From Podospora anserina (lineage: Eukaryota), in assembly GCA_017654855.1 (NCBI GenBank), contig CM030337.1, positions 3,224,001 through 3,288,000 of the forward strand: 64,000 nt of DNA, written 5' to 3'. Made by a program: the position numbers and the translations under genes. This document shows, in pieces, positions 7,439-14,903 of the stretch (the stretch's first letter is position 1; each line of letters opens with the position of its first letter). Under the pieces are notes generated by a model. It saw only the letters and a list, made by a program, of their open reading frames with translations, was not told the origin of the DNA and searched no databases.

Positions 7439-7876
7439 TGTCACAACCCTGGGGTATGGACGAGAATAACGATTGGTTGTGGAACCACGGGAGCAGGGGC
7501 CAATCGGGAAAACACCTAGGAGAGCCAATCACAGGGAGGGACGGTGATCCGTGCGATCAGAGCACTGATCAGACTGAGCAGGCCAGGCCGGGGTGATCAG
7601 TGTGATCAGGACACTGATCAGGCTGAGCGTAAGTGATCAGTATACTCGGGACACTGATCAGAGGAATCACGGCTAGGAAAAGAAGTCTATATATACGGAG
7701 GAACTGGCTGGTGTAGATAGACAGTTCCGCAGTATGCAATTCACAATTGTATTCACGGTATCTTGTGTTTACATTGAGACATCTTGTTGTGCACTGTCTA
7801 GCTGCACCGAACCAATTGTCAGAAGTTACCTTCAACCCGTATCCCTTTCAGAGGTTCTGTACAGGGGTTCGTCACA
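7439..7876 (+). mobile_element. Solo LTR of Ty3/gypsy family (LTR-1)
   Basis: TGTCACA...GTTCGTCACA termini; TATA box (TCTATATATACGGAGGAAC); 3' half near-identical to the four other LTR copies in the window. Confidence 0.93.
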
Positions 7877-10289
7877 CCTTCCTCTTCTCCTCCTTCCTCT
7901 CCTCCTCCTTCCTCTCCTCCTCCTTCCTCTCCTCCTCCTTGCTCTCTTCCTCTTCGCCCTCCTCCTTTTCCCTCTTCTTCTTCTCGGCTCCCAGACGAAG
8001 CGAGATATACTGGGCCGCTTTGATAGCAAAACACATCGCTGTCAAAGTGGGATTCGATGCGTTCTTGCCGGGGATGACATTCAGGCCCCCCACGAAGAGG
8101 TTGTTGACACCATGGATCTGGGAGAACTTGTTGCAACATGAATCGTCCTTTTTCTCTCCGGCCCTGGTGGTGCCGCAAACGTGGAGCGCTAGGCCATTTT
8201 CCATGAACTGCGGCTCCGAGCCAGGGAGATAGCCACCTAGAACCCCAGCAACCTCTTCCATATGCTTCATCATCTGATGAGTAAGTTCCCGGTCTGCGTC
8301 GCCGAGGCGGTAGAAGAAGGTAGGTTGCGGCATCCCGTAGGCATCCTTGACCTTTGTTGTAAACTTGACGCAATTGTCCTTTGTTGGTTCCACTGGGCCA
8401 AAGAAGCGCAAATCCACAATGGTCCGCTTGTCGATGTTCGGGGGCACTGCGCCGTAAGAGAAGGCATCCCGATGTATCTGGGTGTGCCACGGTTGTTTCT
8501 CGGAAACGGGGAGCGTGACCTGAGGATCCAGATCGTTGAAAGGAAATGGTAACTGATCCTGAGGGTAACGGCCTTTTTGAGTCTCCAAATGCTTCTTGAT
8601 CTTCTCGTCCCATTTCTCCTTCCTGAGCGAGTCCCAACCGTCGTTTTTCGGGTCATCCTTTGGGTATGGGTGAGCGCCGTAGACTGCCTTGATCCAGCGC
8701 CTATCCAGGACAACTTGGCAAAAACACATGGTTTGCTCGGTGAGGTAGTGACCCTATGACATGAAATTATAACTGATTAGTACCAGACTGGCAAACGATA
8801 ATCGAGTATATAGACAACTTGGAGTACATACCAGAGCTGGAAGCTCGAGGAAGGGTTCTACCACTTCCTTGTCGCTAAGCCTCTCGACACAATGAGACAC
8901 GGAGTTGGGGCCAACCTTGGTCCATGTCTTGGTCTTAGTAGTGGTCTCGCCCGTCCGAAACCCCGAATTGAATAGCAACTGTGGAGTGAGTATAGGTCCA
9001 CCGCAAATGATGTATACCCTGGCTTTTACTTCGTCCAGCTGGTTGGTTAGTAGCGAGCGGACCTTGGCATTCTCCACGATCCCTGCATCTCCACTGGCAT
9101 CCTTTGTGTTCTTGATGATGGTGAGCTTCTCGCAGAGCCACTCACTTCTCAACTCGAGCTTTTTGCTGAACTCGGGTTTAATCTTCTCAAGCACTGTGTG
9201 CGACGAAGACCAGGTGATAAACTCAGAGCCGTCTCGCTTGGCCGCAAGAGGGAGTGCGAATGCCGCGGGTTTCTGGTCTCCATTCTCGTCCTTTTCTCCT
9301 TCGAAATGATCATTCAGGATCTGCTTGACCATGTCTTGGCGGATTGAACCCTCAAGGACGTCGGTATGTGTTTCAATCAGCTTTTCCGCTTCGCTATACA
9401 GCCCCTCCCATTCGTTCTGGAGAAGTGGAGAACGTTCCCTTAGATGCTGTCGGGGAGTTGAACAAGTCCAGCTAAATCAACGCGGTCAGCGAGTGGTTAG
9501 AAATGACTTTTTCCCCAGGAGATGCTAAGCTGGGCGACAGATGCCAACCAGAAAGGCCAGCATGACTAGGGTCACCTCATACTGGGTTGACATGCCCCCT
9601 ACATTCCTGGCCACAGCATTGAGGCCAAGGTTTAAGGCAGGGTCCTGATAAGGATTCTGGCTATGCTGCACTTGTTTTCCTTCTCTGTTTGCTGCTGTTA
9701 GCTTCCCCGAGTGCACTACCTAATGGTGGTGGATGTAGTTAGATTTGCTCACCCTGACCAAGACACTGGAGGCAGAGTAGGGACTACCGATTCATCGGTT
9801 GGCACCGAAGTTAGTTGCAAACTTCCCTTTATCAGGAGCATCAGACCGTTAGCCTAGGCTATCTGCTGTGTACTCGATCTGCCAATGCCTACTTTGATGA
9901 CGCTGATAGGGAGACTGTTAGCTGACTGGCACAAACTGGACTCCCAAAGTAGGTAAATATACTCACTGGACGAAGGAGTCAATATCTTTTTGAAAGCGTA
10001 CAGCATTCTTCTTGTGCTCTCCGCGTTTTTTACTCTCCCTGTTTAAGGTATAAGGTTAGAACAGTCAGCGGGAAATTACAACAAGGGACGTACTCTGCGC
10101 CAGCCTCGACCATGAGCACCGTGTGCCCATCATTCACTAGGATCTTGGCAAACGTGGCACCAAGGGGGCCGGAGCCCACAACTGAGGCAGAAGCTTGTCA
10201 GTCTGGACACCACGAAACACATTCAGCGCAGCGGTGAATGGTAAGTACTTACTTAGAGCATCGTACTGGTAGTGGTCCTTCTCGCCCAT
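7872..10289 (-). CDS. Pyranose 2-oxidase (AA3_4 GMC flavoprotein), multi-exon
   Basis: Spliced by hand: YDALIVGSGPLGATFAK (FAD binding), GEHKKN..FQKDIDSFVHVIKG, VGGMSTHWTCSTP (covalent-FAD His), ICGGPILTPQLLFNSG, PWHTQIHRDAFSYG, GLALHVCGTTR and NPTLTAM (catalytic His/Asn). Frame intact across GT-AG introns. Confidence 0.92.
7877..7985. repeat. Low-complexity pyrimidine tract with 15-bp units (CCTTCCTCTCCTCCT), encoding the KEEER tail of the oxidase
   Basis: Directly visible tandem units. Confidence 0.85.
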
Positions 10290-14600: not shown

Positions 14601-14903
14601 GAACAAGTCTCTGGTACTGCTAAGCAGGGCGGGATGGTGGCTCCCAGGAAGGAATACTACAGCAAGTCCTTTGAGGACGTGAAGAAGCTTGAGGAGAAGT
14701 TGAACGAGGGGGCATTCGATTACTGCGCGCTGATGCCCCTCGAGGAGCATGGCAAGATCTGGCATACACTTGACGACGGACGAACAATTTACCGTAAGAA
14801 TGGGACGGTGTCGTACCCGGCTCATGCCTGGAGAGCTGGTGTAGGAAACGCGGGGGAGAATGTAGATGTCTGGATGGCCCTCGAATTTGATGCCCGGGTC
14901 TGA
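11643..14903 (+). CDS. Aldos-2-ulose dehydratase/isomerase (AUDH)-like protein, multi-exon
   Basis: N-terminal beta-propeller repeats (DGYWVRAF, D..KNGLLDVVICHGYG, GFIYWYENPG, WPVMHRLQTGHF, ATIDPFH, GPGHYVTCADIDGDGVDE) and C-terminal cupin (HMQFW, FHDH...ELHTCL, EHGKIW, GTVSYPAHAW). Confidence 0.85.

Follow-up and report, generated by a model that had tools for sequence, protein, structure and literature searches.

Does an ascomycete genome encode a route from glucose to cortalcerone like that proposed for wood-rot basidiomycetes, and by what history would it have come to do so? The question is raised by a 64,000-nucleotide stretch of the genome of the dung fungus Podospora anserina (contig CM030337.1, positions 3,224,001 to 3,288,000; hereafter, the window), in which a gene for pyranose 2-oxidase (POx) lies beside a gene for a homologue of aldos-2-ulose dehydratase (AUDH). 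We find that both genes are intact and belong to these families, that they are neighbors in 12 of 17 other ascomycete species for which both were retrieved, and that they share one history that departs from taxonomy. Conversion of glucose to glucosone and then to cortalcerone is probably what the pair does.

Gene models and family assignment

The two genes are arranged head-to-head, with start codons 1,353 bp apart. Both models rest on sequence and homology, not RNA, and both run from ATG to stop without internal stop codons, as a preliminary description of the window had proposed for two intact divergent genes with a spacer of ~1.35 kb. The longest ATG-initiated open reading frame (ORF) in the shared upstream region (10290..11642, 1,353 bp) is 70 aa. 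This region may be a bidirectional promoter; none of six promoter motifs tried there is enriched relative to 1000 shuffles (lowest p 0.07).

The POx gene (7872..10289, minus strand; family AA3_4) has its ATG at 10289 and its stop at 7872. Its eight exons (10289-10253, 10181-10094, 10038-9967, 9902-9893, 9826-9753, 9684-9583, 9471-8832 and 8753-7872) encode 634 aa. All seven introns are GT-AG (55-111 bp) with a branch-site match in each, and the acceptor of intron 4, AAG, is of a less common type. The counterpart is P. anserina Pa_6_8060, already given as a pyranose oxidase in a passage of the P. anserina genome paper (PMC2441463). The best match of the last exon in the PDB is Phanerochaete chrysosporium P2O (4mig, E 5e-68). 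Both large exons match the TIGR02462 model, and a P. anserina record with 97.6% identity to our model (P0241) scores 558.4 over the whole protein, above the equivalog cut-off of 544.9. Alignment with the POx of P. chrysosporium and Aspergillus nidulans shows that the GxGxxG/FAD-binding, hGGGpp/flavinylation His and catalytic His/Asn motifs are intact, as is a motif that we take to be the substrate loop. Identity is 41.0% to the P. chrysosporium protein, 54.5% to that of A. nidulans and 59.1% to the A. flavus orthologue. The FAD-binding, flavinylation and His/Asn criteria are those set out in a section of a review of POx (PMC6509819).

The AUDH gene (11643..14903, plus strand) has its ATG at 11643, its stop at 14903, and 12 exons that encode 847 aa. 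Ten of its eleven introns are GT-AG and one is GC-AG; they are 53-83 bp long, ten have a branch-site match, and the acceptor of intron 9 (GAG) is a less common one. For each of the four exons searched against the PDB, the AUDH sequence of 4a7k is the sole match, and the same four exons match Pfam PF22301 or PF18637 above the cut-offs. A beta-propeller (PF22301) and a cupin (PF18637) are thus encoded in one chain. The closest records to the two genes come from the Podospora anserina complex. The profile and PDB results bear out the identities put forward in the preliminary description, with the POx family and the AUDH propeller and cupin all recovered by profile searches.

The single chain depends on the GC-AG intron (intron 8, 13288..13370, plus strand, 83 bp), for which the support is from homology only. 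Its length modulo 3 is 2, so retention leads to a frameshift; a Podospora comata model reads through it to an early stop. Splicing it yields a motif that Aspergillus homologues have just before the next exon. In records of P. anserina, P. comata and P. pseudocomata, AUDH is split into two models (6_8080 and 6_8090; in P. anserina, Pa_6_8080 and Pa_6_8090). Where the split models break differs from one to the next, in each case within intron-derived sequence, and a P. pseudopauciseta model spans the site. Because the splice restores a conserved motif and the split models end or begin in intron sequence, AUDH appears much the likelier to be one gene. The pieces are 94-99% identical across Podospora species, and no signature of repeat-induced point mutation (RIP) was found in coding windows of the pair.

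Equivalents of H155, H215, H295, H337, H630, H632, E639, H641 and H709 of 4a7k (numbering transferred via the A. flavus orthologue) are all present in the protein. Each is near-invariant in a 62-row alignment, with 52/54 to 59/59 of the ungapped eukaryotic rows in agreement, and we take these residues to be catalytic or metal-binding. The A. flavus orthologue, modeled with AlphaFold (pLDDT 89.6), has the three AUDH entries as its best structural matches (E ~1e-57; next, 4e-9).

A hydropathy scan, as opposed to a dedicated signal-peptide predictor, identified no N-terminal hydrophobic leader in either protein. The best 11-residue values are 1.48 for POx, at the FAD-binding strand, and 0.18 for AUDH. 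This agrees with the preliminary description, which took it to fit an intracellular pathway. A passage in PMC6509819, however, reports a signal peptide in no POx clade, yet POx has been found extracellularly. The missing signal peptide thus tells little of location.

Linkage in other ascomycetes

Linkage was counted from word-index searches in which chosen clusters were opened, so the counts are not a census. Adjacency means consecutive accessions or locus tags and, outside Podospora, does not extend to gene orientation. POx and AUDH are adjacent in 12 of the 17 non-Podospora ascomycete species for which both genes were retrieved. These are Aspergillus terreus, A. flavus, A. hancockii, A. avenaceus, A. 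transmontanensis and A. pseudocaelatus; Penicillium canescens, P. maclennaniae and Penicillium sp. IBT 18751x; and Paramyrothecium foliicola, Fusarium albosuccineum and Annulohypoxylon sp. In two more, A. novoparasiticus and A. parasiticus, the only indication is that the POx and AUDH contigs are of equal size. With the genes immediately adjacent here, and adjacent also in three fungal orders outside Podospora, the locus belongs with the P2O-pyranosone dehydratase pairs. In Aspergillus section Flavi an alpha-glucoside transporter appears to adjoin AUDH, and one A. oryzae model fuses the two; a search of the window for this major facilitator superfamily (MFS) transporter gave no match.

Evolutionary history of the pair

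The trees are from quick searches without bootstrap. The AUDH tree (67 rows) places the window sequence in a 12-row clade (SH-aLRT 100) with Aspergillus, Penicillium, Paramyrothecium and F. albosuccineum; Chaetomium, Cercophora and Lasiosphaeris lie elsewhere in it. The POx tree (65 rows) has the window and its sister Parathielavia in a 21-row clade (SH-aLRT 95) with the same genera. Thus, the companions of Podospora in both trees are Aspergillus, Penicillium and two hypocrealean fungi. The Annulohypoxylon pair belongs to a separate Xylariales-Diaporthe group, again in both trees. Approximately unbiased (AU) tests reject monophyly of the Sordariales for AUDH (p 5.75e-50) and of the Sordariomycetes for POx (p 9e-52, 37 rows). 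For the linked AUDH clade, tested with 30 rows, monophyly is rejected for both of the groups picked after the tree had been seen, Eurotiales (p 6.8e-36) and Sordariomycetes (p 2.8e-8).

Because the two trees agree and taxonomic grouping is rejected, the pair evidently travels as a unit, by transfer or as ancient paralogs. The survey of linkage and phylogeny suggested in the preliminary description gave shared clades that are discordant with taxonomy in both trees. The functional link between the genes that it proposed gains support from the same trees and from the adjacency in 12 of 17 species. The trees and AU tests are compatible with either transfer or old paralogy, and no donor is named. 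We lean toward an old fungus-to-fungus transfer that brought the pair to the Podospora lineage as a unit, as opposed to ancient duplication with many losses. Both explanations are offered for the patchy spread of POx in a part of the review cited above (PMC6509819). Coding GC of the pair is 0.53 (0.62-0.63 at third codon positions), and values for the ORF of a polyketide synthase-nonribosomal peptide synthetase (PKS-NRPS) in the window are higher (0.61 and 0.72); with a single comparison gene, this contrast says nothing on transfer.

Metabolic predictions

From the genes, domains, residues, linkage and history described above, we infer the activities, product, regulation and role of the pair. 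Family membership strongly suggests that POx oxidizes D-glucose at C2 with O2 to form D-glucosone and H2O2. AUDH, predicted to be metal-dependent, would then dehydrate and rearrange glucosone to cortalcerone, by homology to the P. chrysosporium enzyme. Cortalcerone may serve as an antibacterial agent against competitors, as the literature proposes; both the glucosone-to-cortalcerone step and this role are stated in a passage of PMC7910265. This is the best reading of the pair. Of the two products named in the preliminary description, cortalcerone is therefore retained, and microthecin is the weaker half.

Several observations count against this reading. The predicted AUDH ends near residue 732 of the 900 in 4a7k, so that the C-terminal ~165 residues, which form a third domain, are absent; P0004 ends likewise, at ~732-733. 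The A. flavus orthologue has only ~30% identity to the solved enzyme, and the whole-chain fit of its model is loose (TM-score 0.50, root-mean-square deviation 18 A). Three of the 17 species, Morchella snyderi, Thelonectria olida and Neonectria punicea, have POx and AUDH on different contigs, and the AUDHs of these three fall outside the clade of the window. In the matching POx clade, word-index searches retrieved no AUDH partner for ten rows (Parathielavia, T. islandicus, six A. nidulans-group rows, P. pulvis and F. zealandicum). Among the best 80 of at least 141 confirmed bacterial AUDH-propeller loci, only one has a full POx within 8 kb. The shared history, for its part, draws on bootstrap-free trees and in part on groups chosen with the tree in view. 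As to the missing domain, the corresponding region is a ricin-type lectin in a Lentinula homologue and is lacking from the other aligned ascomycete rows as well. The window AUDH is, by its predicted sequence, a two-domain ascomycete form and not the three-domain enzyme.

The pair might instead act as a detoxification sink, in which POx mainly generates H2O2 or reduces quinones while lignocellulose is broken down, AUDH removes reactive glucosone, and the pyrone is waste. Linkage and co-evolution fit this equally well. A passage of the genome paper (PMC2441463) counts the P. anserina POx as a candidate for lignin degradation, and part of another paper proposes that POx feeds peroxide-dependent enzymes (PMC7910265). 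We nevertheless consider such a role unlikely, as the alpha-glucoside transporter that appears to adjoin AUDH in section Flavi suggests sugar uptake feeding a product, and the immediate neighbors in the window are not lignin enzymes.

Could a short AUDH make a different pyrone, by halting at a dehydrated intermediate or by rearranging it otherwise, in section Flavi possibly toward kojic acid? The POx-linked AUDH clade is on its own long stem and has an altered cupin motif, seen among the rows shown only within this clade. Cortalcerone also has the same formula as kojic acid. However, all nine His/Glu positions are kept, and kojic acid is, to our knowledge, unreported from Podospora, Paramyrothecium and Fusarium, which have the pair too. 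Sections of PMC11051239 describe kojic acid (C6H6O4) as made chemo-enzymatically from glucosone, with dehydration steps that lack an assigned enzyme, but also as abolished by kojA, kojR and kojT deletions. Overall, a different pyrone seems improbable. Still more speculative, and in our opinion a long shot, is that a portable sugar-to-pyrone module with a non-cortalcerone AUDH moved between ascomycete classes and, in section Flavi, where the alpha-glucoside transporter lies alongside, supplies the as yet unassigned oxidation and dehydration from glucose via glucosone to kojic acid.

Microthecin would be the main product if AUDH acted on 1,5-anhydrofructose supplied either by a glucan lyase at an unlinked locus or by POx itself, which oxidizes 1,5-anhydroglucitol. 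According to a passage in PMC13765081, microthecin is made by the ascomycetes Morchella and Escovopsioides. A comparison of fungal-type metagenome AUDH loci bears on this. None of 20 such loci includes POx (only six of the 20 have 8 kb of upstream sequence), and in five of those six a GH31 gene lies on the other strand at a distance of 2.3-5.2 kb. These five (L084, L087, L089, L091 and L092) have a divergent two-gene layout, as in the window, but represent three independent loci. Their AUDHs best match rows outside the clade of the window. In three of the five, the GH31 nucleophile motif lacks the hydrolase Glu; PDB searches identify the proteins as GH31, either lyase or hydrolase. No GH31 match was found in the 64-kb window (tblastn, E 1e-3). 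Because other AUDH lineages adjoin lyase-like GH31 genes and the window has none, microthecin is less likely here, and we give it very little weight as the main product. In fungi, the partner of AUDH seems to be the enzyme that provides its 2-keto-sugar: POx (glucosone) here, and a GH31 lyase (1,5-anhydrofructose) elsewhere.

Lastly, it is scarcely credible that the split models are right and that AUDH is in two pieces or decaying, with the pair defunct in Podospora, for although three species have two models in their records, the joining intron is non-canonical and transposon remnants flank POx, the split models end or begin in intron-derived sequence at different places, the P. pseudopauciseta model covers the site, splicing of the GC-AG intron yields the conserved motif, and the pieces are conserved between species and free of a RIP signature in their coding windows.

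Comparison with known systems

Genes for P2O and pyranosone dehydratase are adjacent in Phlebiopsis gigantea and other wood-decay basidiomycetes, as described, without orientation, in a passage of Hori et al. (2014, PMC4256170). The locus in the window resembles these in the adjacency of the same two families and in the proposed glucose-to-cortalcerone route. The host here is an ascomycete, however, and both genes group with ascomycete rather than basidiomycete homologues, in line with the ascomycete origin given in the preliminary description. Therefore, the pairing either predates the ascomycete-basidiomycete split or arose more than once. With the P. chrysosporium AUDH (4a7k/4a7y/4a7z, 900 aa), the predicted protein shares the propeller, the cupin and the nine His/Glu positions; the differences are the identity of ~30% and the ~165 C-terminal residues. 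The anhydrofructose pathway, in which a GH31 alpha-1,4-glucan lyase and AUDH produce microthecin, uses the same downstream enzyme family, but its upstream enzyme is a glucan lyase rather than a free-sugar oxidase and its AUDH lineage differs.

The POx of A. nidulans (AN5281, Q5B2E9) and that of A. oryzae are in the same tree clade as the POx of the window. Unlike these enzymes, the window POx contains additional loops, and its charged, low-complexity tail is ended by a long terminal repeat (LTR). No AUDH neighbor of the A. nidulans POx was retrieved in word-index searches. The two Aspergillus enzymes are reported to be the subject of a 2012 paper by Pisanelli et al.

As adjacency is already in print for wood-decay basidiomycetes, in a part of PMC4256170, the pair is not new in kind. 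No description of a POx-AUDH pair in an ascomycete was found in the literature searched, though subscription papers could already report one, and the gene identifiers of the pair occur in that literature only in the P. anserina genome paper. New here are the ascomycete pair, its adjacency in 12 of 17 other species, and a shared history discordant with taxonomy. A pathway of wood-rot basidiomycetes would thus extend to Podospora, Aspergillus (including A. flavus and relatives), Penicillium, Fusarium and the Xylariales. Since knockouts are easy in P. anserina and Aspergillus, the long-proposed antibacterial role of cortalcerone is directly testable. The pair also offers a reason, besides lignin breakdown, for the patchy spread of POx among fungi. 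It would be a natural-product locus without a backbone enzyme, of a type that backbone-based cluster finders would probably miss, and its gene models correct a split in three Podospora annotations.

AUDH partners outside the ascomycetes

POx-AUDH pairing recurs elsewhere. A 1387-aa protein (P0258, a single record on one 4,380-bp contig) is a bacterial-type POx fused to a full AUDH; the region of its catalytic Asn is unlike that of other POx. A Streptomyces locus (L076) has, in order, genes for GH15, POx, a TIM-barrel protein and an AUDH propeller, so that one gene separates POx from the propeller. Across the same 80 best bacterial AUDH-propeller loci, there are weak GMC matches at three and GH31 at three, and the AUDH cupin was detected at none (E 1e-4). 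Two bacterial loci (L033:853-6151 and L036:7914-15405) have an AUDH propeller, an unassigned ORF of ~250 aa and GH31 in a row, to which L036 adds a GMC oxidoreductase.

Also identified were proteins that are either fusions or merged gene models. In P0279, AUDH is joined with zf-C3HC and GH31, in P0398 the AUDH cupin with phosphomannose isomerase, and in P0281 and P0288 the AUDH propeller with a copper-binding domain. The amoeba Copromyxa protea has an AUDH with both propeller and cupin (P0260), which is on a long branch near the bacterial rows.

Repeats and neighboring genes in the window

A solo LTR-like repeat (7439..7876) lies at the 3' end of POx and is a passenger outside the pathway. It was identified from 7682-7877. 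Identity of that segment is 82-92% to the LTR-family members at 28914-29104, 36902-37105 and 37509-37704 and is 69% to 29927-30114. The left boundary of the repeat and its flanking bases come from direct inspection of the sequence. The end of the repeat provides the POx stop codon. The resulting tail is the same in P0241, and three other Podospora species have different tails. No matching target-site duplication was found around the repeat. Beside the POx 3' end is a remnant of a DDE transposase (7249-7593 frame).

Recent mobilization was considered as the source of the inverted repeats 7717-7877/28914-29074, 21 kb apart, and rejected: both belong to an LTR family that is present five times in the first 38 kb. 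The preliminary description had the pair on a mobilized block. Locally this lacks support, as the flanking repeats are of one LTR family and locus numbering is the same in four Podospora species; no recombinase was found among 37 window ORFs scanned. Within the window there is no local sign of recent movement of the pair, and it is to an old movement between fungal classes that the trees do point. The LTR family includes a decayed retroelement at 29633-37105, an AT-rich region that is flanked by direct repeats 6,975 bp apart, bears a RIP signature and has a core GC of 0.11-0.15. Further copies of the family are at 7439-7876, 28914-29104 and 37509-37704.

The neighbor of AUDH (15268-16884, plus strand) is a 538-aa ORF like HeLo/DUF7580/kinase-like clusters (Atlas score 0.97). 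It is followed by a 637-aa ORF (17551-19464, minus strand) like clusters annotated as fungal N-terminal domain (Atlas score 0.95). These two are possibly non-self-recognition genes. Also present are a PhoD-like phosphatase gene (23610-25726) and, just past it, a 274-bp tandem duplication with 99% identity (26033-26580).

The region at 38482-63086 is an ordinary backbone cluster, separate from the POx-AUDH pair. It encodes a PKS-NRPS hybrid with a 4169-aa ORF (AT, DH, MT, KR, C, A and reductase) and a KS N-terminal exon at 51400-51945. Accompanying genes encode a P450 (53577-54599), a zinc-binding dehydrogenase, likely of the trans-enoyl-reductase type (56134-57306), an MFS transporter (57936-59072) and a GMC oxidoreductase (61711-63083).

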